Shown: positions 33,261 through 56,649, numbered from the stretch's first letter. The stretch is 64,000 nucleotides of DNA from an uncultured Mollicutes bacterium (GCA_900540395.1 UQFQ01000002.1:78918-142917), one strand, 5' to 3'. Program-made: numbers and translations. The notes: generated from the sequence alone by a model not told the origin.

Positions 33261-33288
33261 TTGAATTGTAAGCGCTTACATTTATAAT
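33261..33288 (+). promoter_or_regulatory. Candidate promoter TTGAAT-N16-TATAAT for the 33328 operon
   Basis: TTGAAT at 33261-33266 and TATAAT at 33283-33288, ~40 nt upstream of the RBS 'aggagg'. Confidence 0.45.
33267..33280. promoter_or_regulatory. Perfect cre-type / LacI-family palindrome TGTAAGCGCTTACA
   Basis: Matches the Gram-positive cre consensus TGWAANCGNTNWCA at every specified position. It fills the -35/-10 spacer of the candidate promoter. Confidence 0.6.
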
Positions 33289-41264: not shown

Positions 41265-41967
41265 CTGAATTTAATTCAATTCTTTTTAAGTTTTCTTCAT
41301 CGTTTATGTTTATACCTAATCTAACTTTATAAACATTAAAGTAACCAATGTATAAACCAATGCATGTAATCAAAATAATGAAAATCACATTGTAATAATC
41401 TGGATAAAAGACGACATCTCCCATAACGCCTCCATTTTCAACAGGCTTCATAAAAGCTTTAAAAATTGTTAAACCGATAGCTATAGAATAAAAGACTGAG
41501 ACAGTCTTGTTTAATCTTTTTCGGATAGATATATTATCTCTGCTTGAGTAGTAATAATTTAAATCGCTACATAACTGTAAAATACCAATAACTATTAGCC
41601 ATGAGTAGCAAAAATAACCAATCAAACTGAAATAATAATCAAATAGATACTCTATTGATTCGTCAAGAAAGTAATTTGAGTAATGCACAAGCATCATAAA
41701 ACCATTTATTGGTAAAAATATTTGAGAAATGATTATTAGTTTTCTTTTATCAAAGCCTTTGATATTAATAAATTTGTAAATTACTGCAGATATAATTCCT
41801 AAAATTATTGAAAGGAGTGAAAAAATCAAAATTATTAGCGGTACACCTGAAGAAAAATCAATGATGCTGCCTTTTTTAGGATCCCAAAATATTGAATAAA
41901 ATGTTATTAAGAATGAATAAATTGGTAATAAAATCATATATATGGATGGAGAGTATATTTTTTTCAT
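41257..41967 (-). CDS. Polytopic membrane protein, unknown family
   Basis: About 6 hydrophobic helices, Tyr/Phe/Ile-rich. Start overlaps the stop of the upstream minus-strand gene. No recognisable motif. Confidence 0.55.
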   Translation of the reverse strand: MKKIYSPSIYMILLPIYSFLITFYSIFWDPKKGSIIDFSSGVPLIILIFSLLSIILGIISAVIYKFINIKGFDKRKLIIISQIFLPINGFMMLVHYSNYFLDESIEYLFDYYFSLIGYFCYSWLIVIGILQLCSDLNYYYSSRDNISIRKRLNKTVSVFYSIAIGLTIFKAFMKPVENGGVMGDVVFYPDYYNVIFIILITCIGLYIGYFNVYKVRLGININDEENLKRIELNSAK

Positions 41968-42623
41968 TTTACTATTACCTCATTTGCAAGTTGGTCTAAA
42001 TTAGTGAATTTATATAATGAAAAACCTAAGTAAGCAAGGAAGGAAGCAAAGTAAAAAGATGCTGTAGTGCATGTTATTGCAAAATTAGGGATATAACGTT
42101 TTTCGTTTTCTTCAAGTGCTACATAATCTATAACAATTAAACTAAATATATAAATGACGAGTAATAATAAGATAATTTGTTTAAATAGGTTTATCAAAAA
42201 AGATAATTTAGGGTATTTAAAATCAAACAGAAAATTTAGAGTATCAAAGACTAACAACGCTATAAAAACTATTAGTAAAATATAACTTAAATATGTAAAT
42301 TTGGCAAAGTGCGGATCTACTGGTATAACCAGGAGTAAAACTATAATAGGTATATAAAGTAAACAGTTTTTAAATGTATACAAAAATAAATCAAAAGATT
42401 TTTTAGAACTACGGAAATAAGCTAAGAAAAAATAAATAAATGCTAAAATAGAAAAGATTCCTAAAACAAAATAAGTATATTTCCCTGCATAACTTTGTGG
42501 TTCATATCTGGAAAATGGATAGAACAAGTATTGCAAGCTTTTTACGAATGGTATCTCATTAATTGCTAATAAAAAAAGTGATGATGTAAGAAAAATTAAG
42601 TTTTCTATATGGTTTGACTTCAT
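41964..42623 (-). CDS. Polytopic membrane protein, unknown family
   Basis: About 6 TM helices. I prefer the start at 'MKSNHIENL' (42623) because 'ggagg' lies 12 nt upstream. Separated by 1 nt from the small ORF upstream. Confidence 0.55.
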   Translation of the reverse strand: MKSNHIENLIFLTSSLFLLAINEIPFVKSLQYLFYPFSRYEPQSYAGKYTYFVLGIFSILAFIYFFLAYFRSSKKSFDLFLYTFKNCLLYIPIIVLLLVIPVDPHFAKFTYLSYILLIVFIALLVFDTLNFLFDFKYPKLSFLINLFKQIILLLLVIYIFSLIVIDYVALEENEKRYIPNFAITCTTASFYFASFLAYLGFSLYKFTNLDQLANEVIVK

Positions 42624-42624
42624 T

Positions 42625-42822
42625 TTATAATATATCCTCCGCAGCAAAAGTTGCATAAACGTTATTTATGCCAACTGAACTAATTGTTACAATATAAAGT
42701 TGTTTTTCTAGATTTTCATTTTGCTTACATTTTTTAATTGGCAAATTAGTGTTGTTTTCAATGCCTCTTGAACTAAAAAGCAATAAAAGCAATGTGCTTA
42801 AGAAAAATATTATATGTTTCAT
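42625..42822 (-). CDS. Small exported protein (65 aa), unknown
   Basis: RBS 'ggagg' upstream. Signal-peptide-like 'MKHIIFFLSTLLLLLFSSRG'. First gene of the 3-gene minus-strand unit. Confidence 0.4.
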   Translation of the reverse strand: MKHIIFFLSTLLLLLFSSRGIENNTNLPIKKCKQNENLEKQLYIVTISSVGINNVYATFAAEDIL

Positions 42823-43090
42823 AATTCCTTTGCCTCCAAAGATTATCTTGGATAACTTAATTCTAGATAATTATAACAAGAAATAATAACATTAAAATTA
42901 ATGTAAAATTGCTTATTAATTAAGTTTATGACGATTATTATCGTATTTTCTTTTATTATGCGATTTGCTTAAACAAAGTTCTAAACTTGTAGGGAAAACT
43001 AAGAAATAGATAGTTTTGATATGATTTAATTTGATTTATATAAATAGAAAAATAATTTAAAATAGTTGTACTTTATGAGGAAAAGATATT

Positions 43091-43681
43091 ATGACTATTA
43101 GTGAAAAGATTAAGGAACTGAGGTTAAATAAAAATATTTCAATAGAGGAAATTAGCAAAATAAGCGAAATACCATTAAAGAAACTTAAAAGAATTGAAAA
43201 CGACTTATACATACCAACGCGAGAAGAAGTGCAAAAACTTTGTGAAGTTTTTGGCGTTGAAGAAAAAGAAATCATAAACGAAGAAACTAGAAAAGATACA
43301 GTAAAAATTGAAGCTAAAATCTCAATGCTCAATTTTTCATATTGGATAATGAATGCTATTGTCTATCTTTTCTTTATTATTGTTGCTTTTATTCCAGCAT
43401 TAAAAGTTGATTTAGATGGATCAACATTGCTTTATAGTTTTAATTCATTATTAATGGGAAACGGGAATCCTCTTGTTATAGTAACCTATGCGTTTTCAAC
43501 TATAGGTTTAATTGTTTCTTTAACAATGTGTGCTTTAAGATTTGCTAGTAAAATTAAATTATCGGAAAAACAAATCTTATGTATAAACGTTTTACTGCTT
43601 GCGATACTGGTTCTAGTTATTGCAACAATATTTACAGTAATTATTACTTATTCAAATGATTTTGTGTCATTGATTATTTGA
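43091..43681 (+). CDS. Membrane-anchored XRE-family HTH protein
   Basis: N-terminal HTH_3 'IKELRLNKNISIEEISKISEIPLKKLKRIENDLYIPTREEVQKLCEVFGV', followed by 3-4 TM helices. Divergent from the 42822 unit. Confidence 0.75.
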   Translation: MTISEKIKELRLNKNISIEEISKISEIPLKKLKRIENDLYIPTREEVQKLCEVFGVEEKEIINEETRKDTVKIEAKISMLNFSYWIMNAIVYLFFIIVAFIPALKVDLDGSTLLYSFNSLLMGNGNPLVIVTYAFSTIGLIVSLTMCALRFASKIKLSEKQILCINVLLLAILVLVIATIFTVIITYSNDFVSLII

Positions 43682-43822
43682 AATAGTTGAGTTTTGCTTG
43701 TTTTTTGCAAGAAAAGTGGTTGTTTAGCTTCGTTAACAATCAGTTAAAATTGAATATAGATTGTGTTAAGATTTAGCCAAATATAAAAAAGTAGTACAAT
43801 AAACAAGAAAAGAGGTAGTGAG

Positions 43823-45169
43823 ATGAAAAACCAATTAAATGATGAACTTATTGCATTTTTAAATGAAAGTCATAATGAATATTTAGCTGCAAATGCTATT
43901 AGAAACATTTTAAGTAAATCAGGATTTAAAGAAATCAAAGAAAATGAAACTTGGAATTTGAAAGAAAATAGTCGATATTTCTTTTTAAGAAACGGTAATT
44001 CTTTAGTTGCTTTCGCTACTCCATATAGACTTAATAAAAGCGATTTCTATTACAAAATCATTTCATCGCATTTAGATTCACCAGCTTTAAAATTAAAAGA
44101 AAACCCTGCAGTTTCCACAAATTTTTATGAAAAATGGAAGGTTGAAGCTTACGGCGGGCTCATTAATTCTACTTATGTTGATAGACCATTAGGCCTTGCT
44201 GGGAGATTAATTGTTAAAACTAAAAACGGATTAGAAACAAGAATTGTTGATACTAAAAAAGCTGTAGCGATTATTCCTAATGTTGCTATTCATCAAAATA
44301 GAAATATTAATAATGGATTTATCTATAATCCACAAGTTGATTTATTACCTATAGCTGGTACAAGCGAGAAAGCACACTATTTTGATGAAATTATTTCTTC
44401 CTTTTTAAAAGACGATGAAGAATTAGTGTCTTATGATTTATATCTTTATAATTTTGATAGAGCCCAATATGTTGGTTTTAATGATGATTTAATCTGCGGA
44501 CAAAAAGAAGATGATTTATCTAGTGCTTTCCTGTCTTTAAAAGCCTTAGTAGATAGTGAAACAAATTATAATGAAACTGGAATTAAAGTCGCTGCGTTCT
44601 TTAACAATGAAGAAACTGGATCTTTGTCTTTCTCAGGAGCAGACAGCGATTTATTAAAGTCCACTTTAAGAAGAATAGCTTTATCTTTTAATGTAAAAGA
44701 AAGTGAATACTTTGCAGCAATTAAAAAATCATTTGTTTTAAGTGCTGATAATGGGCATGCAATTCATCCTAATCATCCAGAAATGAGTGATGATAAAAAT
44801 CTTTGCTTATTAAATAAAGGCATTTTACTCAAATTTAATTCAAATATGGCTTATACAAGTGATGCTTTTACATCAGCTTTTGTTAAATCTTTATGTAAAG
44901 AAAATAATATTCCTTATCAAGTTTTCTTTAATAGAAGTGATGTAAGAGGAGGGTCAACTCTTGGAAATATTTCTATATCACAAGAAAGTTTCTTGACTGC
45001 TGATATTGGTATGCCTCAACTTGCTATGCATTCTTTTTTTGAAACAATAGGAAGCGAAGATACAAAACATATGTTTAACTTAATGTCTAGTTTCTATAAA
45101 ACAGTATTTAAGATTGATGGAGATACTATAAAATTTATAAAGACATCAAAAAACAATAAACTTTTATAA
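43823..45169 (+). CDS. M18 family aminopeptidase (aspartyl aminopeptidase-like)
   Basis: 'SSHLDSPALKLK', 'FNNEETGS', 'SADNGHAIHPNHPE', 'RGGSTLGNI', 'IGMPQLAMHS'. Characteristic M18 blocks. Confidence 0.85.
   Translation: MKNQLNDELIAFLNESHNEYLAANAIRNILSKSGFKEIKENETWNLKENSRYFFLRNGNSLVAFATPYRLNKSDFYYKIISSHLDSPALKLKENPAVSTNFYEKWKVEAYGGLINSTYVDRPLGLAGRLIVKTKNGLETRIVDTKKAVAIIPNVAIHQNRNINNGFIYNPQVDLLPIAGTSEKAHYFDEIISSFLKDDEELVSYDLYLYNFDRAQYVGFNDDLICGQKEDDLSSAFLSLKALVDSETNYNETGIKVAAFFNNEETGSLSFSGADSDLLKSTLRRIALSFNVKESEYFAAIKKSFVLSADNGHAIHPNHPEMSDDKNLCLLNKGILLKFNSNMAYTSDAFTSAFVKSLCKENNIPYQVFFNRSDVRGGSTLGNISISQESFLTADIGMPQLAMHSFFETIGSEDTKHMFNLMSSFYKTVFKIDGDTIKFIKTSKNNKLL
44873..45118 (+). repeat. Direct repeat copy 1 (246 bp, inside 3' part of the aminopeptidase gene)
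   Basis: Base-by-base comparison with 54388-54633 gives 3 mismatches in 246 nt and no indels. Sequence diverges sharply on both sides. Confidence 0.9.
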
Positions 45170-45177
45170 AAGTATTT

Positions 45178-46164
45178 TTAGCAAGTAGTGCCTTGATAAA
45201 AAGCGACGTTAATTTTAATTAGTTTTAATTCGTAGTTTTTGTTTTCAATCATATCGAGAATTGTCGATATTGTTTCAGCAACTATTCTTTCATTATCTGG
45301 GGCGATACTACTTACTCTAATTGGATAGCGGAATGATTTTTGAATATTATCATAACCAATTACTTTAACTTTGTTGATAATGTTTAAATCATATAAAACC
45401 TCTAAGACATCAAAAGCTAGTAAATCACTAAAGCAGAAAATTCCATCTACAGGATTGTTATTAATTTGAATTTTTAACAAGTCTTTTGCTTTGTTTTCTT
45501 CATCACCTATAACGACAAGTGGTTTCTTATTAAATGAAGCGCATACGCAGTCTTCAAACCCTTTATGTCTAATATTATCGATATCTAAATCTTTATGCTC
45601 AGTATAATAAAGCAAGTTTTTTAGTCCAAGATTTATAAAGGTTTGAGCAGCTAATTTTCCGCCTTCATAATCATCACTATATATACTTGTTGTATTAGTA
45701 TTAACGCCATTTCTACCAATTAAGACTATTGGAGTCTTGCTGTTATCAATAATTGCTTTAGCCTCTATAGTTGGTTCAATAAAAGTTATAATTCCTGCAA
45801 CATGGAATGAAATAACTCGCTTTGCTATTTCAAGCGAAAGATAACCTATAGAGTGGCGATCAATAAAAATCATTGTCTCATACTTGTAATTAAATAATTT
45901 TGCCGTTATTTGATCCAGCATCATGGAATAATAAGGGTTGTTTAAATTATCATAAATTATAGCAATTACATCCATTTTGCCTGCTCTTAAAGCGCTTGCT
46001 CTCATGTCAGGAATATAGCCTAATTTATCAGCAATTTTTCGGACTTTTTCTTGAGTTTTTAAAGAGATATTTTTCTTTTGTTTAAGAGCTCTTGATGCGG
46101 AATTTACCGAAATCCCAGCGAGTTTAGCAATGTCTTTTAAAGTAGGTTTTTTCTGCGACTTCAT
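45178..46164 (-). CDS. LacI family transcriptional regulator
   Basis: 'PTLKDIAKLAGISVNSASRALK' HTH plus a periplasmic-binding-protein-like sugar domain. Its stop lies 8 nt from the convergent aminopeptidase stop. Confidence 0.9.
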   Translation of the reverse strand: MKSQKKPTLKDIAKLAGISVNSASRALKQKKNISLKTQEKVRKIADKLGYIPDMRASALRAGKMDVIAIIYDNLNNPYYSMMLDQITAKLFNYKYETMIFIDRHSIGYLSLEIAKRVISFHVAGIITFIEPTIEAKAIIDNSKTPIVLIGRNGVNTNTTSIYSDDYEGGKLAAQTFINLGLKNLLYYTEHKDLDIDNIRHKGFEDCVCASFNKKPLVVIGDEENKAKDLLKIQINNNPVDGIFCFSDLLAFDVLEVLYDLNIINKVKVIGYDNIQKSFRYPIRVSSIAPDNERIVAETISTILDMIENKNYELKLIKINVAFYQGTTC

Positions 46165-46238
46165 AGAAATATTCTTACATTAATTTTCATGTAATGCAAT
46201 AAAAAACATACGACCATTATCGCAAAATTTAATTTTTT

Positions 46239-46254
46239 AGGTTAACGATAACCT
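46239..46254. promoter_or_regulatory. Inverted repeat AGGTTA-ACGA-TAACCT (candidate LacI operator)
   Basis: 6-nt perfect arms. Directly upstream of the candidate -35 of the 46318 operon, in the divergent LacI/operon intergenic region. Confidence 0.3.
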
Positions 46255-46262
46255 AAATTTTA

Positions 46263-46291
46263 TTGACTTAAAAAAATTAATGAAATAATAT
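46263..46291 (+). promoter_or_regulatory. Candidate promoter TTGACT-N17-TAATAT for 46318..54181 operon
   Basis: TTGACT at 46263-46268 and TAATAT at 46286-46291, followed by RBS 'aaagga' and the ATG at 46318. Confidence 0.45.
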
Positions 46292-46317
46292 TGAATTAGC
46301 AAAGAAAGGAAATCAAA

Positions 46318-48336
46318 ATGAGAAAAGCATTATTAGTTTTGGCTTTAACTACTTTTGGCGTATTAACAATGAGTAGTTGCCAAAATACTCCTGAAGTAAA
46401 CGAAGACGTAAAATACACTGTAACTTTTATAATTGATGGTGTAAAAACCGAGAAAAGTGTAGAAGACGGAGAAAAAGTTACTGCGATTGAAGAGCCAAAA
46501 AAAGACGGCTATACCTTCACTGGTTGGTATACTTCCGCAAATTGTGAAGAAGACGAATTATATAATTTTGATTCTGCAGTTACTTCTAATTTAACTTTAT
46601 ATGCTGGTTTTGAAAAGAATGAAGAAATCAAGACTTTTACGGTAACATTAGAACTTAATGGTGGAATTTTAGATGGCGAAACTTCTTTTGTACTTAATGA
46701 AGGCGAACTTGTAAGTAAACCTACTGATCCAGTCAAAAATGGATATACATTTGATTATTGGGCTAGCGATAGTGAATTGACAAAAGAATTTGATTTCGAA
46801 ACTACGATAATTACAAGCGACATCACTCTATACGCTAAATTTGATTTAATAGAAATTGATGTTAAATATGAAATTGTTGCAAGCAGTGAAGATGGCGTAG
46901 AATATCGCATCGATTATGCTGCAGATGGAAATTCTGAAACATATTGGAAAGCTAAAGATGGCAGTGCTCAAACATTAACTGTCGATTTAGGTTCAACAAA
47001 ATCCGTTAACTATGTTAGCCAAGAGTTTAATGATATGGCATCATGGAATTTTACAATTTCTGGTTCTATTGATGGCGAAACTTACGTTCCAATTATAGAT
47101 AATAGCGGTGATACTGTTGGTTCAAAATACGAAAGAGACCTCACTGGTTACTACCGTTATATTAGAATGGATATTGCTGAAAGTGAAGTTGTTGCTACAA
47201 GTAAGGAATTTGAAATTGAATTTACTGATTTGAATGAAGGCATTAATCTTGCTTATGGTATGAAAGGAATTGCTGATTGCTGGGCAGGCGGTTATGAGCC
47301 AGAAAAAATGTTTGATGGTAACACTGGAAATTATCATTGTGCAAACGCTGCACATGACAATCATTATATGGGAATAGATACCAATGAAGATTATTACGTA
47401 GATAATATTGAAATTTATTTCCCTAATGAAACAGACCATAAATTCTTTGTAGATTATGCTAGTGTTGCAAATGGCGGAACATGGATTCAAAAAGAAGAAT
47501 TGAATTTATTAACTAACACTGAAAAGTTCAGTTCAATTAAACTTGATGTTAATGACTTAGTTTCATCATTATTGGTTCATTATAGCAGCAATTCTGATGG
47601 ACATTGGCCAGCTATTTCTGAATTAAAAGTAAACGGATTTAAGCTCAATAAAGATGTAACAATTAATGAAAATGTTATAGATTTAGGCAGTCAATCTTAT
47701 CTTTCTAGAATTTATATAGGAGAAACAACAGGATTAACATTCGAAACTTCAATGGATAATACCAGTTATGAAGAAGTTACACCAACTATAGAAAATGGCT
47801 ATGCAGTTTTCGATAAAGAATGTAGATATGTTAAGGTGAGCGGTGATGCTGATTTATCAACTTTTAAAGTTTATTCAGCTTCATTTATTCGCAATTTAGC
47901 GTTGAATACTTCCCCAGTCGCTACAACAAGGAGTGATGATGCAGGATTTTGGGAAGCTATGATGGTTATGAATAAAGACTGTAAAGATGCTCAAGGCAGA
48001 TTCTGGTGTGCTCATGATGCCGATACTAAAGAAACGATTACCTTAGATTTTGGAATTAACGTATTAGCAAATGATATTTTCTACAAATATCAAGACCCAG
48101 CAGTAAACTATAATTATCAGTTAAAGATTTATGTCTCTAAAGATAATGAAGAATTTATTAATGTTTTAGATACTACCGCAAATGAAAATGGCGGCAGTAA
48201 TGAACAATCTTATACTGCACATCTTGAAGAAGATCAACGCAGTTTTAGATACTTGAAGATTGAAACTTATAATGCTAGTGGTTTTACAAATTGCAATACA
48301 TTGGCAGTTAATGGAATAGGTTCACCAATTATTTAA
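46318..48336 (+). CDS. Surface lipoprotein: 2x Listeria-Bacteroides (Flg_new) repeats + multiple F5/8 type C (discoidin/CBM32-like) domains
   Basis: Lipobox 'MSS-C'. 'GYTFTGWYTS..LYNFDSAVTSNLTLYAGF' and 'GYTFDYWASD..FDFETTIITSDITLYAKF' are Flg_new repeats. Discoidin signatures 'AADGNSETYWKA' and 'KMFDGNTGNYHCA'. Confidence 0.75.
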   Translation: MRKALLVLALTTFGVLTMSSCQNTPEVNEDVKYTVTFIIDGVKTEKSVEDGEKVTAIEEPKKDGYTFTGWYTSANCEEDELYNFDSAVTSNLTLYAGFEKNEEIKTFTVTLELNGGILDGETSFVLNEGELVSKPTDPVKNGYTFDYWASDSELTKEFDFETTIITSDITLYAKFDLIEIDVKYEIVASSEDGVEYRIDYAADGNSETYWKAKDGSAQTLTVDLGSTKSVNYVSQEFNDMASWNFTISGSIDGETYVPIIDNSGDTVGSKYERDLTGYYRYIRMDIAESEVVATSKEFEIEFTDLNEGINLAYGMKGIADCWAGGYEPEKMFDGNTGNYHCANAAHDNHYMGIDTNEDYYVDNIEIYFPNETDHKFFVDYASVANGGTWIQKEELNLLTNTEKFSSIKLDVNDLVSSLLVHYSSNSDGHWPAISELKVNGFKLNKDVTINENVIDLGSQSYLSRIYIGETTGLTFETSMDNTSYEEVTPTIENGYAVFDKECRYVKVSGDADLSTFKVYSASFIRNLALNTSPVATTRSDDAGFWEAMMVMNKDCKDAQGRFWCAHDADTKETITLDFGINVLANDIFYKYQDPAVNYNYQLKIYVSKDNEEFINVLDTTANENGGSNEQSYTAHLEEDQRSFRYLKIETYNASGFTNCNTLAVNGIGSPII

Positions 48337-48339
48337 TTT

Positions 48340-50679
48340 ATGAAGAAAAGATTATTATTAACTTCTCTTTCAATGTTAGCCTTGCTTCCTTTAGCATCTT
48401 GCTCAGAGGAAGCAAATTCTAACGAGGGAGATGATTTAAAAGCATTTATTCAAGACCAAGAAAATAAATATGCAATTACTTTTAAAGAAGGAGATACTTT
48501 ATCTTCGATAATTTCTTATGAAGTTGAAGGCAAAAGTATTATCAATTTTTATACTGATGATGAGTTTTTAAGCAAAGCCGACACGTCAATCTCTTTAAAA
48601 GAAGGAGAGACATATTTTGCTTTAACGGAATCTACTAGTGATATTATAGAAATCTCAACAGCTCAAGATTTTAAAAATATAACTGAATATGGTAATTATC
48701 GTTTAACTAACGATATTGATTTTAATGGGGAAATTATTGATTTAAATTTTGATTATTTGAATCCTTTTAAAGGGTATTTTAATGGTAATGGTCATACACT
48801 AAAGAATTTTAACTTACCTGATAAAGAGTACAGTGCATTATTTGGTGTAGTTGAAGGGACAATTTTTAATGTTAAAGTCGATACAGAAATAAATGCAATT
48901 TTTAATAATGTAACTTATGTTTCTCCTCTTGTTGGATATTTAAAATCTGGTGGCTTAATAAGAGAATGCTCTGCTTATGGTAATGTTTCAATCAATACAA
49001 CTAAAGAAAGGGGCGGAGTATATTTAGGCGGAATTAATGCTAGAAATGATCAAGGTAGAATTTTGCTTTCAGAAAATTTTTCTTCATTATCCAACTATAC
49101 AAATGTAAATGCTTTTACTGGTGGTATAGTTGCCTATAATGGTGGAGGAGAACCTTTTGAAAGTAAATTATCCTATTCTTATTCCAGTAGTAAATATATA
49201 ACATCATCAACAGGTGGTCATAACACTTCTTCTTATTGCGGTGGAATTGCGGGTTTCAATTTTGGGGAGGTTTCGCATACTTATTCAAACGATAAAGTAA
49301 TTAGAAGTAGAAGTAACGACTATCAAGCTTTTGGAGCATCTTTAGTTGCTGATAACAATGGAGGAAAAGTATCTAATTCCTTTGGATTAGGTGATGTCAT
49401 GGTTACTTCAGACAGCGGATATGTGTTTAGCGGAAATACCATTGGTAGAAATTTTAAAAGCAGTCTAGAAGATGATAGTGGAACTGTGTCTAATCTTTTC
49501 GGTTATGATAAACAAAATATTAAATCTTTTAATGGCTCAAGAAACGCACTCAAAGAAAACTTATACTTTACATCATTAAAATATGAAGAGATTTCTTCTA
49601 GTGAATTTTTAGAAAAACTAGGTTTTTGCAGTGTTTTTAATGTAAAAAGTGGATATTTACCATCGATTAATTCAAGCTTTGAGCAAGTAGATTCTAACGT
49701 AGAATATCAAGGAATTACTAACGTTGAAGATTTTCTAGATATAAAAAATGATTTAACAGGTAAATATATATTGACTAATGATATCACAATCGATGAAAGT
49801 GACTATTCACCAATCGGAAATTATCAAACACCATTTAAAGGCATCTTAGATGGTAATGGTCATACAATTACTTATGAGGTTTCTCCTTCTAGTAGAAACA
49901 GCCAAGATGGTTTATTTGGATTTTTAAATGGTGTAGTTAAAAATCTTAAAATAGTCGTAAAAGGAGACATAGTAAATGAATCCAATAATGTAATATTTGG
50001 TGGATTAAGTGGATATGCTCTCAAATCATCAATTGAAAACGTTAATGTTAATTACGAAAATACTATTGAAGGAAACGGTGTTGTTTTCGGTGGCTTAATT
50101 GGCATAAATGAAGATTCTTTAATTGAAAAATCATCTGCAAACGGTTCAATTTCGGCTAAGGCAAGTGAGATTGAATCTTATTTAGGTGGTCTTGTTGGTA
50201 GAAACAGTGGAGAAATTAATTTCGGAAGTTCTGATTCAACAATTGAGGTTTCTCAAGGAAGTATCGTTTATATTGGCGGACTAGTTGGTAAAAACTATAA
50301 AAAAATAAAATCTTCATATGCTATTAGTGAAATCAAATCCTCAAATATAAGCGATGAAAAAGCAATTGGCGGGTTCACTGGTGCTAATTTTGACTTAGGA
50401 AATATAGTTGATTCTTATTCAAAGAGCAATATCGAAAATACAAGAGAAGCAACTATTAATCTTTTAGGTGGCTTTAGTGGTGACAATTTAAAAACCATTA
50501 CAAATTGTTATTATTATGCAAACGAAGAAATTAAATATAGTGCAGGAGAATCATTAGTTTTTACTGATATTGATAGAGTGAGTTTGGAAGAGTTGAAAAC
50601 TTTGGCTTCTAGGTTAAATGATAATTTCGTTGATGGAGAAAATGGTTATCCGGTTTTAAATTCTGAGGAAAATATATGA
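48340..50679 (+). CDS. Surface lipoprotein with duplicated GLUG-motif beta-helix modules
   Basis: Lipobox 'LAS-C'. Two module heads: 'ISTAQDFKNI..YRLTNDIDFNGE..FKGYFNGNGHTLKNF' and 'ITNVEDFLDI..YILTNDITIDES..FKGILDGNGHTITYE'. Each is followed by GLUG-like repeats (GGINA, GGIAG, GGLSG, GGLIG, GGLVG x2, GGFTG, GGFSG). Confidence 0.7.
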   Translation: MKKRLLLTSLSMLALLPLASCSEEANSNEGDDLKAFIQDQENKYAITFKEGDTLSSIISYEVEGKSIINFYTDDEFLSKADTSISLKEGETYFALTESTSDIIEISTAQDFKNITEYGNYRLTNDIDFNGEIIDLNFDYLNPFKGYFNGNGHTLKNFNLPDKEYSALFGVVEGTIFNVKVDTEINAIFNNVTYVSPLVGYLKSGGLIRECSAYGNVSINTTKERGGVYLGGINARNDQGRILLSENFSSLSNYTNVNAFTGGIVAYNGGGEPFESKLSYSYSSSKYITSSTGGHNTSSYCGGIAGFNFGEVSHTYSNDKVIRSRSNDYQAFGASLVADNNGGKVSNSFGLGDVMVTSDSGYVFSGNTIGRNFKSSLEDDSGTVSNLFGYDKQNIKSFNGSRNALKENLYFTSLKYEEISSSEFLEKLGFCSVFNVKSGYLPSINSSFEQVDSNVEYQGITNVEDFLDIKNDLTGKYILTNDITIDESDYSPIGNYQTPFKGILDGNGHTITYEVSPSSRNSQDGLFGFLNGVVKNLKIVVKGDIVNESNNVIFGGLSGYALKSSIENVNVNYENTIEGNGVVFGGLIGINEDSLIEKSSANGSISAKASEIESYLGGLVGRNSGEINFGSSDSTIEVSQGSIVYIGGLVGKNYKKIKSSYAISEIKSSNISDEKAIGGFTGANFDLGNIVDSYSKSNIENTREATINLLGGFSGDNLKTITNCYYYANEEIKYSAGESLVFTDIDRVSLEELKTLASRLNDNFVDGENGYPVLNSEENI

Positions 50680-53519
50680 AAAGGATTAATTTAAAAAGTA
50701 TCGTTCCTTTTACTTTACTTTTAACTAGTGTTGGGATTAATAATAATGATTCAAATTTAATCATGGCAAAATCAAATTTAAATTATGATTCAGAAGTTAC
50801 TGTTTCTTCAGAATCAAGCGATCATGGGAAAGCCTTAATTAACGATTTTAATTATGATACTTATTGGGAAGGCACTGAAGCCAATAACCAATCTGTTGTT
50901 TTAGATCTTCTTTCTATTAAAAAAGTAACTTCTGTTACACAAATCTTTAAAGATGAAGATGTTTGGTTTTTCACAATTGAGGCTAGTGGTGATGGAGAGA
51001 ATTACTTTCAGATTGTCGATCATAGCAAAGGCGCTTTTGGAAGGTCATTTGAAGAAAGCGTAACAACTTATGCACGTTATGTTAGATTAAATGTTGCTAA
51101 ATCCGAAAAAGGATATTTGCCTTCAAGTAAAGAGTTTTATGTAAACTTTGATGAAATAAGCGAAGGTGAAAATCTAGCATTAGGTGCTCAAGGAGGCGCT
51201 TCATCTTCGCAAGGTAATTATCTTCCAGAAAAAGCATTTGATGGTAATAGTGCAACTTATTGGTGTGCTAGTTCTGGAAATTATGAACAATGGCTAAGTG
51301 TTGAACTTGGTTCTTTCGCATATGTCAAAAACATTGTTCTCCATTTAAATAATTATGGAAGTTATGAATTTGAAGTTGAAGGTCGTAACGAAAATGGAGA
51401 ATGGGTTAAAGTAGTAGAAAGAGCAAAATTTAATGGTTCAACTTTTACTTTCTCAGTTGAAGGAAAATACGATGCATTTGTTTATAGAACATTTGCAGGA
51501 CCTGGTTGGGCGAATTTAAATGAATTTGAGGTTAATGGGTTTAAAAAAATAACCAATTACTCTCAAGAAGATAATATTATGGAATTCCCTTCCTTAATTT
51601 ATGTAGACTCTTTTACAGGAAGTGAAAGCATTGAGTACTCAGTAGATAAAACAAACTGGCATACTTTAAATAAAGATAGTGAAGGAGTGAATGCTCGTTA
51701 TATTCGTTCTAACTCTCAAGTAAAAATTTATGGAACAAGTATTCAAACTTCTTTATTAGAAGAAATGGATGGTAAAGTAAGTGACTATTTAGATCATGAT
51801 CATTTATTGTTAAATATAACAACCAGTAAAAGAAATGCTAATTATACTTCAAGAAGTTGGAAGTCTTCTATTGTTGGTCAAAAAGAAACAATCGAATTTG
51901 ATTTAGGCCGTATATCTTTACTCGATAATTTTGAAATTTTAATTCCAGCTAATACTTTATCTTCTATTTCTATTGAAGTTAGCAATGATGGATTAACTTA
52001 TCAAAAATATGCTGATTCTGCAGATATTTCTGAAGAAACAACGACTTTAATGTTAAATAACGAGAACATACAACAAGGTCGATATATAAGAATATTTGTA
52101 ACTCCTCAATCTGATAAACAAGCTGAGATTATAAATTTAAGTTTGTATGGATTAGGCAATTCAAAAGTAGAAAATTGGTGGGAAGATACAAGTGGAGTAA
52201 TTAGATTTTATCCTAAGTTACAAAAAGTTAGTCTTAACGAAATTACTTCAAGACTCGATGAATTTAGAAATAGCGGTTATAAAGTAATCGAGCTTCACCA
52301 ACCATATGAAGGTCTTGCTGATATTTGGGCAGGACTTGGTGGCACAAATAACTATATGGTTGATCCTTTAATCGGTACTCTTGATGATTTATTAAGATTA
52401 TTAGATGAAGCTCATAAACGTGATATGTATGTCTTTATGTTCGGCAATGTTGGATACGGTAAAAATACCGCTGACTATTTCAAGAAAGCCTGTAAAGATT
52501 ATGCTTTAGGAATTGACTCAAAAGAAAGAAATTGGTTTGTTTTTTCTGAAACTTGCCCAGATCCTACAAAATGGTTCTATAGTGATATTGCTAAAGCATA
52601 TTATTATGGCTATTGGGGAGAAAATGGACAAATTCCAACCTTCAATTTCGAAAACGAAGAATGGCAAGAGGAAGTTTACAATTATATAGATTATTGGTCT
52701 TCGATTGGTTTTGATGGCATTGCTTTAGATGCTCCAAATGTTTATTACTTTGGTAATGCTAATGCTAGTAGAGTTACTTATGAAACAATTACTAAAACCA
52801 TGATCAAGAAGAACTTATTTGTCCTTCCTGAAGGTACAGGAGATAATAGTTTTATATCTAATTATCATTATTCTTGTATACAAAACTATGGTTTATCAAG
52901 TTGGGGTGGCGCTGCTTTTTCTCTTGGACTAAATAATGCGCAAACAAACAGTGTTAACGATACTGAAAACGTTTTAAAAAATAATCGAGATATGACTGTT
53001 TCTTTAGGTGGTGTTTCCATGGGATGTATGAATTTTGAGGATAATTATCTAAATGAAACAGGAAACAACCGTGTTTTAGAAGCTGCTTTAGTTACTCAAA
53101 CTGGACATTTAGCTTTCTTGCATTCAGGAAGTGATGCAAGGATTGGACAAGACATAATGGCTAATTGGGATGAAGATACTCAATCTCAAATTCATTCATT
53201 ATTCGGACTTCAAAATTCAATGGCTGCTTTAAACCCTAGTGGTCATCGTTATAAGTTAACTTCAACAAATGAAAGTAAAATTTATGCATATTTGAAGAAG
53301 GATTTGCATAATAATTCTATAGTAATGCCAATATTTAACTACGCAATTGTTGATATAGATTATCAAATTAATTTGCAAAATACGGAGTTAAATTTTGAAG
53401 ATGGTGAATATGTTTTTTACGATGCTTTTAATGATGAAAACGTTAATGTAACCATAAGAGGAGGAATCATGTCTTTAAGTTCCCCTAAAGAATCTTATAG
53501 ATGTTTGATTATTAGATAA
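50676..53519 (+). CDS. Secreted multi-discoidin (CBM32-like) protein with C-terminal divergent GH13-like (alpha-amylase superfamily) catalytic domain
   Basis: Non-lipoprotein signal peptide. Discoidin signatures 'NYDTYWEG' and 'KAFDGNSATYWCA'. C-terminal 'YMVDPLIGTLDDLLRLLDEAHKRDMYVFMFGNVGY', 'GFDGIALDAPN', 'FVLPEGTG' and 'CMNFEDN' line up with GH13 regions I-IV, but the canonical His residues are absent. Confidence 0.6.
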   Translation: MKRINLKSIVPFTLLLTSVGINNNDSNLIMAKSNLNYDSEVTVSSESSDHGKALINDFNYDTYWEGTEANNQSVVLDLLSIKKVTSVTQIFKDEDVWFFTIEASGDGENYFQIVDHSKGAFGRSFEESVTTYARYVRLNVAKSEKGYLPSSKEFYVNFDEISEGENLALGAQGGASSSQGNYLPEKAFDGNSATYWCASSGNYEQWLSVELGSFAYVKNIVLHLNNYGSYEFEVEGRNENGEWVKVVERAKFNGSTFTFSVEGKYDAFVYRTFAGPGWANLNEFEVNGFKKITNYSQEDNIMEFPSLIYVDSFTGSESIEYSVDKTNWHTLNKDSEGVNARYIRSNSQVKIYGTSIQTSLLEEMDGKVSDYLDHDHLLLNITTSKRNANYTSRSWKSSIVGQKETIEFDLGRISLLDNFEILIPANTLSSISIEVSNDGLTYQKYADSADISEETTTLMLNNENIQQGRYIRIFVTPQSDKQAEIINLSLYGLGNSKVENWWEDTSGVIRFYPKLQKVSLNEITSRLDEFRNSGYKVIELHQPYEGLADIWAGLGGTNNYMVDPLIGTLDDLLRLLDEAHKRDMYVFMFGNVGYGKNTADYFKKACKDYALGIDSKERNWFVFSETCPDPTKWFYSDIAKAYYYGYWGENGQIPTFNFENEEWQEEVYNYIDYWSSIGFDGIALDAPNVYYFGNANASRVTYETITKTMIKKNLFVLPEGTGDNSFISNYHYSCIQNYGLSSWGGAAFSLGLNNAQTNSVNDTENVLKNNRDMTVSLGGVSMGCMNFEDNYLNETGNNRVLEAALVTQTGHLAFLHSGSDARIGQDIMANWDEDTQSQIHSLFGLQNSMAALNPSGHRYKLTSTNESKIYAYLKKDLHNNSIVMPIFNYAIVDIDYQINLQNTELNFEDGEYVFYDAFNDENVNVTIRGGIMSLSSPKESYRCLIIR

Positions 53520-53521
53520 TT

Positions 53522-54181
53522 ATGAAGAAAATATTATTACCTATTTTACTTGGAACGCTTTTATCCACTCCAAGTGTAAATAATCAAAAAGCAAAAGTTG
53601 ATGTTATGAAAAGTGAAAGTGGAGAAAGTGCTATTACATTAAGAAGTTCTAACTCTGCTTCAGTGGCTAATTCTAATTTCACAAGTTCTTATGAAGAAGA
53701 TGGTGTTAGATTTATAGTTAACTTTATTGATGAAGAAAGTTTAGTTGCAGATAACACATACGATATTGGCTATAACGACAACATTGAATTTTTGATTTCT
53801 AAAAAAACTACTTCAACAAGTTGGGAAATAGGAAAAACATATCATTTTCTTTTATCTGCTAATGGCGAAATTTATTTTGAAAGAGCGGTTGGAACCAATT
53901 CTTTAGGTGATAGATTTGATAAATCTATGGGTATAGTTTTAGGAGAAAATCTTGATTATAAGATTACCTATATAAAAAGTGGGAAATTAACAACTGGATT
54001 TAGTGCTGAGATATATCTAGCTTATGATTTACTTGGTTTGACAAAAGAAGAAGCACTTAATAACCTAACTTATTGTCCGGCTATAAGAAACGCACATATA
54101 TATAATGTGGATAGCACATGGGTTTATTATTCTCTTAATGGGTGTAATTGGTCTAATCCATCTACATTTGTTGAAATTTAG
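53522..54181 (+). CDS. Secreted protein, possible CBM9/DOMON-like carbohydrate-binding fold
   Basis: Signal peptide 'MKKILLPILLGTLLSTPSVNN'. 'YNDNIEFLIS' is reminiscent of the CBM9 'DDSVE.F.D' motif. Weak call. Confidence 0.4.
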   Translation: MKKILLPILLGTLLSTPSVNNQKAKVDVMKSESGESAITLRSSNSASVANSNFTSSYEEDGVRFIVNFIDEESLVADNTYDIGYNDNIEFLISKKTTSTSWEIGKTYHFLLSANGEIYFERAVGTNSLGDRFDKSMGIVLGENLDYKITYIKSGKLTTGFSAEIYLAYDLLGLTKEEALNNLTYCPAIRNAHIYNVDSTWVYYSLNGCNWSNPSTFVEI

Positions 54182-54241
54182 GTATTTGTGCAACTTAAAT
54201 AACCCGCTAAACCTAATTGGTTTTTGAAAAGATTTAACAGC

Positions 54242-54270
54242 AAACGTCCCTTAAAATATGGGGCGTTTTC
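54242..54270 (+). terminator. Rho-independent terminator of the 46318..54181 operon
   Basis: Stem aaacgtccc / ggggcgttt (one G-U pair), 9-nt loop, T-tract 'ttttc'. Confidence 0.6.
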
Positions 54271-54339
54271 TATATCTAAAATTCTACTTTAGATTAAAAA
54301 AACTATTATGATGTGACCTCCTGTCTAGAGTAAATTGTA

Positions 54340-54684
54340 ATGAAATTGAATATGTGTGATTATTTGACGAAATTTCGAAGATTCAAATCAGCTTTTGTTA
54401 AAACTTTATGTAAAGAAAATAATATTTCTTATCAAGTTTTCTTTAATAGAAGTGATGTAAGAGGAGGGTCAACTCTTGGAAATATTTCTATATCACAAGA
54501 AAGTTTCTTGACTGCTGATATTGGTATGCCTCAACTTGCTATGCATTCTTTTTTTGAAACAATAGGAAGCGAAGATACAGAACATATGTTTAACTTAATG
54601 TCTAGTTTCTATAAAACAGTATTTAAGATTGATAATGATAAAATAACATTCCTTAATCCAGGAAAAGCAAGCAAGATTTTATAG
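54340..54684 (+). pseudogene. 3' fragment of an M18 aminopeptidase gene (duplicate of the end of 43823..45169)
   Basis: Encodes only the last ~100 residues ('SAFVKTLCKENNISYQVFFNRSDVRGGSTLGNISISQESFLTADIGMPQLAMHSFFETIGSEDTEHMF..'). The upstream 15 codons are unrelated and there is no RBS. Confidence 0.8.
54388..54633 (+). repeat. Direct repeat copy 2 (246 bp)
   Basis: See copy 1. The three mismatches are t/a in 'gttaaa[t/a]c', c/t in 'att[c/t]ct' and a/g in 'aca[a/g]aac'. Confidence 0.9.
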
Positions 54685-54694
54685 TCATTTTAAG

Positions 54695-54718
54695 GTTTAC
54701 ATTAAAATTATTGTAAAC
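54695..54718. promoter_or_regulatory. Inverted repeat GTTTACA-N10-TGTAAAC after the aminopeptidase fragment
   Basis: Perfect 7-nt arms. Could be a weak AT-rich terminator hairpin or an operator. Confidence 0.25.
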
Positions 54719-54854
54719 TTTAAAAACATAATAATTTAGTTAAAACTTTCACAATTAAATTTATAAAACCAAACGAAATGACCGAATTTTATCGCTCTTT
54801 TTAGATTTTTGGCAAATCAACTTTTAAAATTTTATTAAATTTAGGTGTGGAAAT

Positions 54855-54868
54855 TGTAAGCGCTTCCA
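54855..54868. promoter_or_regulatory. cre-like / LacI-type operator TGTAAGCGCTTCCA
   Basis: 13 of 14 identical to the perfect palindrome at 33267. Central CG. Upstream of the 55043 locus. Confidence 0.45.
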
Positions 54869-54877
54869 GTTTTTAAA

Positions 54878-54891
54878 AGAAAGCGCTTACA
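54878..54891. promoter_or_regulatory. cre-like / LacI-type operator AGAAAGCGCTTACA
   Basis: Second copy, 23 nt (start to start) from the first. The core is AAGCGCTTACA. Confidence 0.45.
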
Positions 54892-54931
54892 TTAAAAATA
54901 ATGTTTTAAAATTGAACATAATTAGAAAAGT

Positions 54932-54945
54932 ACGATAATTATCGT
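54932..54945. promoter_or_regulatory. Perfect 14-bp palindrome ACGATAATTATCGT
   Basis: Self-complementary. Related ACGAT-N4-ATCGT elements occur at 42931-42944 and, partially, at 33197-33208. Confidence 0.35.
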
Positions 54946-55042
54946 TATTTTTTAAAACATTACGCAACATTACAATTTTGACAACGATATTTCTTTAAAG
55001 TTAACTTAAAGACAACAAAAATACTTTTTTAGGAGGATAGCT

Positions 55043-56638
55043 ATGAAAAGAAGAAAAGTATTAAGCGTCGCACTTTTAAGTGCACTTACATTCGGGTCAA
55101 TCGTTGGAATGACTTCTTGTGGAAATGATGAAGGTGGCGATGTTATACCTGATAACGTAACCGTTAATTGGACTGGTCTTGAAACAGTTTATTTAAACAT
55201 GGGCGATACAGCACCAGATCCATTAGTTGGCGTCAAAGCAACTTCAAGTGAGGGCGATGAACTTAAAGTTGTTTTAGATAGTGAAAGCTCAATGACTATT
55301 GATACTGGTTACCCAGGAACTTATACCGTTTATTATTATGCTGAAACAGCAGACGGTACTAAAGTTGATGCAGAAGGAACTGGTTATGCTTATAAAACAT
55401 TTATTGTTGAAAGAGGCACAACTTTAGACAATTCAACTTTTGATACAGGTGTCACTAGTTGGAGTGGAAACGGAAATGCTGGTTCTAAAATGGAATTTTC
55501 TTGGGATTCAACAGAAAAAGCTTTAAAAGTTGATATCACCAATGCTGGTTTAGAATATTGGAATAACCAAGTTGAATACAATGGTTTAAATTTAGATGCT
55601 AATTCAACTTATGAAATTACATTTAAAGCTAAATCAAATAGTGGCAGAAATATTGGTGTAACTATGGAAGTTCCAGCCAATGGATATGCAGTTGTTGAAA
55701 ATCCAAATTGCTATGGTCTTCCTACAAAAACAGAATATCAAGACTATAAATTCTATTACACAACTGGCGATGAAAAATTAGAGGCAATTAAATTTGGCTT
55801 TTTACTTGGAAGATTTACTGAAGCTGACGATGTTGCTGCTGGTGAAAAAGATACTGTTTGGATTGATGATGTTTATGTCAAAAAGATGGCAAAAACAGCA
55901 AATACAACTGGTGTAGTCTTTGAAAATGCTGGAAGAGTTAAATTAGATGGTTTAAATCCATTTAAATCATATGCTGAAGCTAAAAAAGTTACAGCAAAAG
56001 ATAAAGACGGAAACGATATCACAGATAAATTAGTTAAAACTGGCGTTGTCCCAACATCATTTACTGATACAATGACAAAAGCCAATTTTGCAGAACAATA
56101 TATGTATACTGATGACGAAGGAAATATTTCCTATGTTAGAAGAGAGTATACATGGGAAAAACCTGCAAACCGTGAAAATGATTGGGATTTAATGAATGAT
56201 GATTTCAATGATGGCCTTACATATTGGAATTTAGAGCAAAATGATATTGTTGAAATCTCAGAAAAAGATGGTATTGCTACAATTAAGGCTTTAAATGAAT
56301 CATCCAAAGTAGATGATTGGAAAGCTCAATTACAACAAAATAATACTGGTAACGTCTTAAAAGCCGGTGAAACTTATTATGTTGAAGTTAAAGCTAAAGT
56401 TGATGATCCATCTGTTAGAACATTAAGACTTGAGTTCTGTGCTAATGCAGGAGGTAATCCAAATGCAAAAACAGATATGATTTTCGAAAAAGCTAATGAA
56501 TGGACAGTATTTAAGAGTTCAGAATATACTCCAAAAGCTGATGTTAGCGGTGGAAATTTAAGAGTTGGTCTCTTACTTGCTGAATATAACGTCAAATATA
56601 CAATGGATGTTGACTACATTAGAATTGTAAAAAAATAA
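55043..56638 (+). CDS. Surface lipoprotein with Ig-like (DUF5011-type) domain and two CBM4_9/CBM22-like carbohydrate-binding modules
   Basis: RBS 'aggagg'. Lipobox 'MTS-C'. 'YPGTYTVYYYAETADG' is Ig-like. 'LDNSTFDTGVTSWSGNGNAG..YWNNQVEY..STYEITFKAKS' and 'LMNDDFNDGLTYWNLEQND..WKAQLQQN..ETYYVEVKAKV' are two CBM4_9-type modules. Confidence 0.7.
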   Translation: MKRRKVLSVALLSALTFGSIVGMTSCGNDEGGDVIPDNVTVNWTGLETVYLNMGDTAPDPLVGVKATSSEGDELKVVLDSESSMTIDTGYPGTYTVYYYAETADGTKVDAEGTGYAYKTFIVERGTTLDNSTFDTGVTSWSGNGNAGSKMEFSWDSTEKALKVDITNAGLEYWNNQVEYNGLNLDANSTYEITFKAKSNSGRNIGVTMEVPANGYAVVENPNCYGLPTKTEYQDYKFYYTTGDEKLEAIKFGFLLGRFTEADDVAAGEKDTVWIDDVYVKKMAKTANTTGVVFENAGRVKLDGLNPFKSYAEAKKVTAKDKDGNDITDKLVKTGVVPTSFTDTMTKANFAEQYMYTDDEGNISYVRREYTWEKPANRENDWDLMNDDFNDGLTYWNLEQNDIVEISEKDGIATIKALNESSKVDDWKAQLQQNNTGNVLKAGETYYVEVKAKVDDPSVRTLRLEFCANAGGNPNAKTDMIFEKANEWTVFKSSEYTPKADVSGGNLRVGLLLAEYNVKYTMDVDYIRIVKK

Positions 56639-56649
56639 TTTATTAATTT

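Follow-up and report, generated by a model that had tools for sequence, protein, structure and literature searches.

A nine-kilobase putative glycan-utilisation block between direct repeats of an aminopeptidase gene end: the probable scar of an old recombination event in an uncultured Bacilli lineage

Introduction

How does a LacI-family regulator gene, together with a four-gene operon for secreted glycan-related proteins, come to lie between two almost identical copies of the 3′ end of a housekeeping aminopeptidase gene? The question is raised by a stretch of 64,000 nucleotides (nt) from an uncultured Mollicutes bacterium (GCA_900540395.1, UQFQ01000002.1:78918-142917), hereafter the window, whose host is an uncultured Bacilli species of low guanine + cytosine (GC) content, known from metagenomes alone. 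There, an intact M18 aminopeptidase gene is followed by a 9.3-kb block of five genes and then by a 5′-truncated relic of the same gene, the part held in common forming a pair of direct repeats (table 1). We consider it likely that a single recombination event long ago, in the manner of insertion-duplication or C-terminal displacement, left this feature as its scar. An initial annotation, made from the sequence alone, had proposed insertion or replacement by homologous recombination within the aminopeptidase gene, and this interpretation is supported by the existence of empty sites, by the linkage of one type of gene tail to the block and by the absence of recombinase genes.

Structure of the duplicated gene end

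The direct repeats, at 44873-45118 (copy A, within the working gene) and 54388-54633 (copy B, within the relic), are 246 base pairs (bp) long and differ at three positions according to repeat search, pairwise alignment and base-by-base comparison. These mismatches, all of them amino-acid-changing, are found at 44888 (T in copy A, A in copy B), 44912 (C/T) and 45065 (A/G). The left boundary of the repeats is placed at 44872/44873 and 54387/54388, with a period of 9,515 bp; beyond it the flanks of copies A and B are unrelated, and similarity ends sharply. On the right, each copy runs into a tail of 51 nt (tail A at 45119-45169, tail B at 54634-54684) with a stop at the equivalent codon, and 21 of the 51 positions differ between them. 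The two tails are homologous yet strongly diverged, and tail A, which is equally long and stops at the same position, is a true aminopeptidase tail; the last 297 nt of the aminopeptidase gene consist of copy A and this block-linked tail. The pair of approximately 99% identical repeats, the abrupt loss of identity at their flanks and the homologous but diverged gene ends had all been described in the initial annotation, and each of these descriptions was reproduced here. A 33-nt third ‘copy’ at 56504, 76% identical, was treated as a chance match.

An assembly artefact, raised at the outset as an alternative for the whole duplication, is set aside because at least five independent assemblies, whose sequences differ, contain the duplication. 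The relic itself is spanned by an open reading frame (ORF) of 114 amino acids (aa) that matches just the last 75 positions of the Pfam M18 model. This ORF is broken in three other carriers of the block (L011, L015 and L016), several strains (P0195, P0196 and P0197) retain it open, and it is probably not a functional gene.

Occupied and empty alleles in the population

A protein search recovered approximately 106 aminopeptidase alleles at 91-100% identity. The C-terminal 16 residues sort 101 of them into two types with no intermediates, tail A (‘GDTIKFIKTSKsNKLL’) in 19 alleles and tail B (‘NDKITF[LF]N..KIL’) in 82, and one further allele represents a third tail type. About one allele in five (approx. 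19/101) is therefore of the block-linked kind. The association with tail type fades upstream of the tail: E426 is found in 89% versus 2% of tail-A and tail-B alleles, D419 and C423 in 95% versus approximately 25%, and further upstream the association is weak. Outside the tail, indeed, the body of the aminopeptidase is a recombining mosaic. Tail B resembles the tails of both outgroup species (NDKITFF.., NDKIILF..), which points to tail B as the ancestral type.

What follows the gene depends on its tail. Tail A was accompanied by both block and relic in five of the five contexts read, namely the window, ERZ28576595 scaffold_75 (L001/L022), L011, L015 and L016. In the tail-B contexts (L012, L013, L023, L024 and L025), the aminopeptidase gene is directly followed by the region equivalent to 54685-55042 and by a CBM4_9/LacI/GH43 cluster, with no block, so that unoccupied alleles are found in the same population as the occupied ones. 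The initial annotation had predicted relatives of precisely this kind, with the aminopeptidase leading straight into this region and the locus at 55043; the opposite outcome, the same arrangement with equally diverged repeats in all relatives, was not seen. The flanking glycan-utilisation cluster as a whole (CBM4_9, LacI, GH43, ATP-binding cassette (ABC) transporter and GH2) is present in carriers and non-carriers alike.

In carriers, then, the upstream gene is intact and has a divergent 3′ end strictly linked to the inserted genes, and the downstream orphan is 5′-truncated and keeps a conserved stretch, the ancestral 3′ end and the native downstream DNA. As tail A is linked to the block, whereas tail B occurs without it and is outgroup-like, the native gene end appears to have been displaced downstream, with the end of a divergent allele now closing the gene. 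All carriers have the same junction between spacer and copy B (54387/54388) and the same boundary between the 246-bp region and the tail; the arrangement therefore has a single origin.

The nearest species representatives in GTDB, whose aminopeptidases are 76-79% identical to that of the window, were rejected as evidence for empty sites: the upstream helix-turn-helix (HTH) gene is common to them and the downstream region is not, which makes them uninformative. A third haplotype was observed in L014 (5354-8160; Logan ERR5083919 contig 2046). Its aminopeptidase gene has its own tail (‘GENIKFDKLTKISKIL’), which differs from tail A at 15 of 51 nt, and its last 246 bp are 12-13% diverged; as in the outgroup L003, a second M18 paralogue (455 aa) and unrelated genes come next. 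In this haplotype also, tail type goes with downstream gene content.

Mechanism and direction of the event

Under the insertion reading, the incoming DNA would have comprised a divergent aminopeptidase 3′ end (tail A), the LacI regulator gene and the operon whose four genes encode secreted glycan-binding and GH13-like proteins. Within the resident M18 gene it would have been joined by homology, and at the opposite end, at 54387/54388, illegitimately. As an outcome, the gene would have remained intact with tail A as its new end, and the resident 3′ end (copy B with tail B) would have been moved 9.5 kb downstream. Two routes can be envisaged, a linear donor acting by homology-facilitated illegitimate recombination or a circularized fragment integrating by a Campbell-type single crossover, and both would yield the same product; the arrangement itself segregates in the population today. 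The sharp right edge of the repeats would follow if exchange resolves within the 246 bp, which contain long invariant stretches even between genera, and not in the 41%-diverged tails with unrelated DNA beyond them.

Several observations weigh against this reading, chiefly in what it says of origin and direction. First, the block is compositionally ordinary for the window: its GC content is 0.309 versus 0.297, and its tetranucleotide distance ranks 21 of 55. The comparison of composition suggested in the initial annotation thus revealed nothing unusual, and a compositionally foreign block is rejected. Among carriers the block is 96-96.7% identical and the flanks 92-96%; with a native composition and a diversity barely below that of the flanks, the insertion would not be recent, and its direction is hard to read. 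Second, no GDTIKF-type tail was found outside the species among aminopeptidases down to approximately 54% identity, and none of the LacI orthologues in other species adjoins an aminopeptidase gene. Because no outside lineage with tail A beside the LacI gene was found, the foreign nature of the allele is something that we infer.

Third, in a sister species (GCA_944336335.1; L017 1-10987, CALVLC010000036.1), the block stands directly 5′ of the same CBM4_9 gene, with no relic, and the aminopeptidase gene is on a different contig (L002). The intergenic region of that species is colinear with 54685-55042 of the window from 6-13 nt past the position of the tail-B stop; a TTTACA-N10-TGTAAA hairpin is again present there, as are two operator palindromes of the LacI type. 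This adjacency would be an odd coincidence had the block inserted here independently, and the neighbourhood of block and CBM gene may accordingly predate the species. Finally, in the empty site L024 a perfect tail B, the same as the tail of functional alleles, adjoins a 246-bp region of the carrier type, with 3-4 mismatches to copy A of L011 and L015 and 16 to other empty sites. It fits a pre-insertion recipient and a later (early) excision product alike.

The sister species and L024 are both what would be expected if the carrier arrangement were the older one, and if the present empty sites were precise deletions of the block by recombination between copies A and B, the gene being restored with tail B. 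Repeats of 246 bp are long enough for RecA-dependent recombination. We nevertheless regard this scenario as rather unlikely, for it still needs an earlier event to create the relic and therefore adds to the insertion model without replacing it. Moreover, the tail B of L024 is that of functional alleles and not one of the decayed tails of its nearest carriers, tail-B alleles are the majority (82/101) and the more diverse in their tail, and no pair of strains identical except for the block was found. The idea that L024 arose by simple excision from a carrier resembling L011 or L015 was rejected, its tail B being free of their decay mutations. Excision of the block through the repeats is conceivable. 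The question of polarity limits what can be claimed on direction, not on what the structure is.

The adjacency in the sister species would also be accounted for, in both species at once, if the relic rather than the block had been inserted. In such a case, a strain with the order aminopeptidase (tail A), LacI, block and CBM would have taken up a tail-B fragment with its downstream region from an empty-type strain, the fragment being anchored by homology in the region upstream of the CBM gene and joined illegitimately at 54387/54388. The final structure would be the same, and the relic tail of the window shows 0/51 differences to the tail of L012, with 54685-55042 being 90% (window) or 98% (L011) identical to empty-site strains. 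On the other hand, a carrier without relic was seen in 0/5 cases, and tail A would have to be the resident type, though it is tail B that is outgroup-like. We hold this alternative to be improbable, and retain insertion of the block with displacement of the resident gene end as the preferred reading.

Age of the arrangement and decay of copy B

Within single genomes, copies A and B differ at 19 of the 246 positions in L011, 18 in L015, 16 in L016 and 10 in L001, compared with three in the window; the repeats of these other carriers are 93-96% identical. The 99% identity is hence a property of the window and not of the element, and is no proof of a recent insertion.

Copy B has in addition accumulated lesions: L011 and L015 each have a 1-nt insertion, L011 and L016 have an in-frame TAA in common, and L016 has a 28-bp tandem duplication (about 15680-15710); the relic lies at 20564-20865 in L011 and at 20564-20864 in L015. 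In these carriers, copy B is a decaying pseudogene, and its lesions are independent.

Traces of exchange are nonetheless visible in copy A. In the lineages of the window/L001 and of L016, it has the tail-B-type residues N419, S423 and K426 up to the tail boundary, where the other carriers have D, C and E, which argues for earlier exchange with copy B or with the alleles of other strains. Copy B would thus decay, yet homologous recombination would intermittently homogenize it with copy A and with functional alleles from other strains. In the lineage of the window, the copies would differ at 10 sites, of which seven in copy A of the window itself are in the copy-B state.

Seven sites in copy A

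Indeed, over 33823-64000 just seven sites separate the window from ERZ28576595 scaffold_75, all inside copy A (44944, 44950, 44990, 44992, 44995, 45036 and 45040), and the window has the copy-B base at all seven. Differences that are clustered in this way and that all match the paralogous copy (7/7 across 30 kb) are those expected of gene conversion. The putative tract (table 1) is bounded at its maximum by the discriminating sites 44912 and 45065, and the change produces I390F and S405F, the latter two residues past the histidine of the conserved AMHS motif. Population alleles have I390 in 102/102 cases and S405 in 101/102. F390 and F405 were found neither among these approximately 102 alleles nor in the fragment ORFs of other strains, which hold I and S; as these fragments and the population alleles agree, the F/F variants would have arisen in the relic of this lineage. 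The I390/S405 protein is found on seven contigs and the F/F protein on one, with the relic ORF on all eight.

Judged from these sequences, real conversion of the gene by its relic and collapse of the repeats during assembly or polishing appear about equally probable as explanations of the seven sites. An artefact would leave the duplication real: copy-B sequence would have been threaded through the middle of copy A by the assembler or polisher, and the true strain would have 10-mismatch (96%) repeats, as in ERZ28576595 scaffold_75. That the 99% identity of the window is such a product has, in our estimation, a little less than an even chance. The occurrence of the variant in a single assembly speaks for it and counts against conversion. 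Furthermore, the sole differences in 30 kb sit in the interior of the repeat, whose variant sites are separated by identical stretches of 24-53 bp, which is where low-k bubble popping acts. The form of the tract slightly favours biology, as it is contiguous and leaves the outer discriminating sites (44888, 44912 and 45065) intact, in the manner of a biological conversion tract. At k of at least 55, the copies have no common k-mers, so that a final-k graph would not mix them, and conversion at this locus is plausible given that, in other strains, copy A has visibly exchanged sequence with copy B and with other alleles. The window may document a conversion of the parent gene by its own relic.

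Gene content of the block and its occurrence in other species

The ORF list and Pfam agree that exactly five genes fill the space between the repeats, as the initial annotation had claimed: the LacI regulator gene on the minus strand and four genes on the plus strand. The regulator gene is convergent with the aminopeptidase gene, their stop codons being 8 bp apart. The content may be that of a Gram-positive polysaccharide-utilisation locus, in which a regulator, surface glycan-binding proteins, a glycoside hydrolase and a transporter would be expected. Besides the regulator, it includes lipoproteins of the discoidin/CBM32-like and Flg_new kinds as well as a distant GH13-like domain, the latter with PDB sequence matches to GH13 pullulanase, amylase and TreS at 2e-10 and weaker. 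No transporter lies inside the block, an ABC system being found in the neighbouring cluster. The Flg_new/discoidin protein (46318-48336) has a lipobox-like N-terminus, as read from its translation. The gene for the last protein, of 219 aa, is conserved in L017 and L020, where it again closes the block.

The earlier claim that the operon has its own terminator is supported by a terminator-like hairpin with a U-run at 54242-54268 (−15 kcal/mol, z = −3.2). Consensus scans for promoters and terminators showed no excess or enrichment, and missed this hairpin because its loop is 9 nt. In the GLUG lipoprotein gene, an internal 47-nt repeat at 48752 and 49820, 74% identical, points to a putative internal domain duplication. 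The ORF of this lipoprotein begins 33 nt (11 codons) 5′ of the start in other assemblies (779 versus 768 aa).

The same five-gene block occurs in three other species (L017, L018 and L020) with no aminopeptidase fragment, homology ending exactly at the LacI stop codon. Its neighbours there are a GLUG fragment (L017), a DpnII-type restriction-modification system (L018, 7092-10311) and Fic and AAA/SMC-like genes (L020, 10881-14057); by their gene content, the surroundings in L018 and L020 appear variable and defence-island-like. An 84-aa ORF beside LacI in L017 was rejected as an aminopeptidase fragment, since it is a GLUG-like fragment.

These observations bear on a degenerate site-specific element, a genomic island or integrative mobilizable element seated at the aminopeptidase 3′ end, with the repeats as its attachment sites (attL and attR) and with its integrase lost or acting in trans. 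The layout is similar: the target gene is intact with an end supplied by the element, there are direct repeats, and the native end has moved downstream. Elements that insert into the 3′ ends of genes typically show such a layout. However, none of the five genes that fill the 9.3 kb is a recombinase, integrase, transposase, relaxase or replication gene, and a Pfam recombinase scan that also covered both flanks was empty. The repeat, at 246 bp, is far longer than usual att cores, and elsewhere the cargo is found in unrelated contexts without any target-derived repeat. Scans of the window with tRNA and Rfam models gave no matches, and hence no tRNA-type integration site or RNA element. The carriers, finally, have one junction and old independent decay, indicating one event and not repeated targeting. 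We judge an integrative element very improbable. A transposon or composite insertion sequence is no better matched: no transposase domain was found, inverted repeats of at least 30 nt are lacking within 42000-57000, and the duplication consists of 246-297 bp of the target gene and not of a short target-site duplication. The initial statement that integrase, transposase and terminal inverted repeats are absent is thus borne out by Pfam and by repeat search.

Table 1. Features of the locus, in window coordinates.
Feature	Position	Strand	Basis or remark
M18 aminopeptidase, intact, 448 aa	43823..45169	+	Pfam Peptidase_M18 2.7e-105; NCBIfam NF002759 equivalog 1.4e-136
Direct repeat copy A, 246 bp	44873..45118	+	3 mismatches to copy B
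Putative gene-conversion tract (copy B to copy A) or assembly collapse	44944..45040	+	97 bp minimum, 152 bp maximum
Tail A, last 16 codons and stop (‘GDTIKFIKTSKNNKLL’)	45119..45169	+	divergent aminopeptidase tail allele, only seen with the block
LacI-family regulator, first block gene	45178..46164	-	Pfam LacI and Peripla_BP_3
Lipoprotein carrying Flg_new (Listeria-Bacteroides) repeats and discoidin (F5/8 type C) domains for glycan binding	46318..48336	+	Pfam
GLUG-motif lipoprotein, N-terminal LASC lipobox	48340..50679	+	Pfam, translation
Secreted protein combining three F5/8 type C domains with a distantly GH13-like catalytic domain (alpha-amylase superfamily)	50676..53519	+	Pfam, PDB sequence matches
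219-aa protein, signal peptide, no known family, last block gene	53522..54181	+	
206-bp block-side spacer, right end forming the illegitimate junction with copy B	54182..54387	+	
114-aa ORF across the relic (48 nt of spacer, copy B and tail B)	54340..54684	+	
Direct repeat copy B, 5′-truncated aminopeptidase relic	54388..54633	+	begins at about codon 351
Tail B, native ancestral-type aminopeptidase tail (‘NDKITFLNPGKASKIL’)	54634..54684	+	same as tail of empty-site L012
Native DNA 3′ of the aminopeptidase gene, upstream region of the CBM4_9 operon	54685..55042	+	
CBM4_9 lipoprotein, first gene of the flanking glycan-utilisation cluster	55043..56638	+	

Comparison with known systems

The scar is of a known kind; its setting, a housekeeping peptidase and a glycan-utilisation cassette, is what is unusual, and no new kind of system is involved. 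In rhs, cdiA and type VI secretion system (T6SS) effector-immunity loci, C-terminal displacement leaves orphan 3′ fragments (PMC5361080), and the mechanism proposed is homology-facilitated illegitimate recombination (PMC5361080, citing Jackson et al. 2009 and Prudhomme et al. 2002). As in those loci, the reading frame is kept, the new divergent 3′ end arrives with downstream genes, the old 3′ end becomes a downstream 5′-truncated orphan with a conserved stretch, no dedicated recombinase is involved, and the retained homology permits later recombination between main gene and orphan. Unlike them, the gene affected here is a cytoplasmic housekeeping M18 aminopeptidase and not a polymorphic toxin, the swapped tip, just 16 residues long, has no evident function, a glycan-utilisation cassette takes the place of an immunity gene as cargo, and there is one orphan and not an array.

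Homology-facilitated illegitimate recombination accompanies natural transformation in Acinetobacter, S. pneumoniae and P. stutzeri, as the citations in PMC5361080 (its references 41, 42 and 47) indicate. A one-sided anchor in the aminopeptidase gene with an illegitimate joint at 54387/54388 would yield the structure observed here. The experimental events are, however, usually short insertions with deletions, whereas here a 9-kb operon would have been gained, by a mechanism that we infer from its product alone.

The product is also that of Campbell-type insertion-duplication: a full-length upstream copy, an insert, a 5′-truncated downstream copy, and flanking direct repeats able to excise the insert. 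In this process, a circle bearing the 3′-terminal fragment of a gene integrates by single crossover. Here, in contrast, no circular intermediate, replicon or vector-like sequence was seen, and a natural circle is hypothetical.

The putative tract within copy A recalls concerted evolution of dispersed repeats and gene conversion among them, also by pseudogenes, examples of which are tufA/tufB in Salmonella, pilS to pilE in Neisseria and CYP21A1P to CYP21A2 in humans. The likeness is that a short contiguous tract in the working gene equals the sequence of a non-functional paralogue, here putatively importing I390F and S405F. The locus differs in that it bears no sign of programming or selection, and an assembly artefact is an alternative.

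Implications

The locus provides a natural example of how a 9-kb glycan-utilisation operon could be gained, and possibly lost, without mobile-element machinery, through recombination anchored in a conserved gene, with occupied, empty and alternative alleles all recoverable from metagenomes. It explains strain-level variation in the carbohydrate-handling surface proteins of an uncultured Bacilli lineage. It also carries a practical warning, as relic repeats of 250 bp can convert a working gene or mislead assemblers, and a single assembly cannot tell which.

At least three haplotypes, each with a deeply diverged 16-residue tail, are found at this position: with the block, without it, and with a second M18 paralogue and other genes. 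The aminopeptidase 3′ end could act as a recurrent docking handle for swaps of downstream gene sets, and the relic may feed pseudogene mutations into the gene inside a lineage that is clonal in other respects. We put this forward as a doubtful proposal; if true, rhs-style C-terminal displacement, with its recombining orphans, would reach beyond toxin genes to metabolic and housekeeping loci.

Downstream regulatory region and other observations

In empty-site strains, the aminopeptidase gene is directly followed by the region upstream of the CBM4_9 operon, which in the window begins after the relic. A perfect TTTACA-N10-TGTAAA hairpin at 54687-54721, immediately 3′ of the relic stop codon, marks the left limit of the conserved part of this region. 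It is also found 3′ of the aminopeptidase gene in empty-site strains and approximately 96 nt past the block in the sister species, and is probably a terminator.

Palindromes of the LacI/CcpA operator type (TGTAAGCGCTTACA) were detected at 54855-54868, 54878-54891 and 33267-33280, with one, two and no mismatches, respectively, that is, three matches versus 0.14 expected. None of the three falls in the divergent promoter region of the block itself; the first two stand 5′ of the CBM4_9 operon, and the sister species conserves both.

Just upstream of the locus, between a 296-aa gene and the HTH gene, 41257-43000 forms a second strain-variable spot, compared across L011 (6575-9000), L012 (6406-9000), L015 (5032-9000), L014 and L016. 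In the window it contains ORFs of 236, 230 and 65 aa on the minus strand, none of which matches Pfam. Nothing occupies the spot in L014 and L016, and elsewhere it holds genes of 307, 867 or 124 aa.

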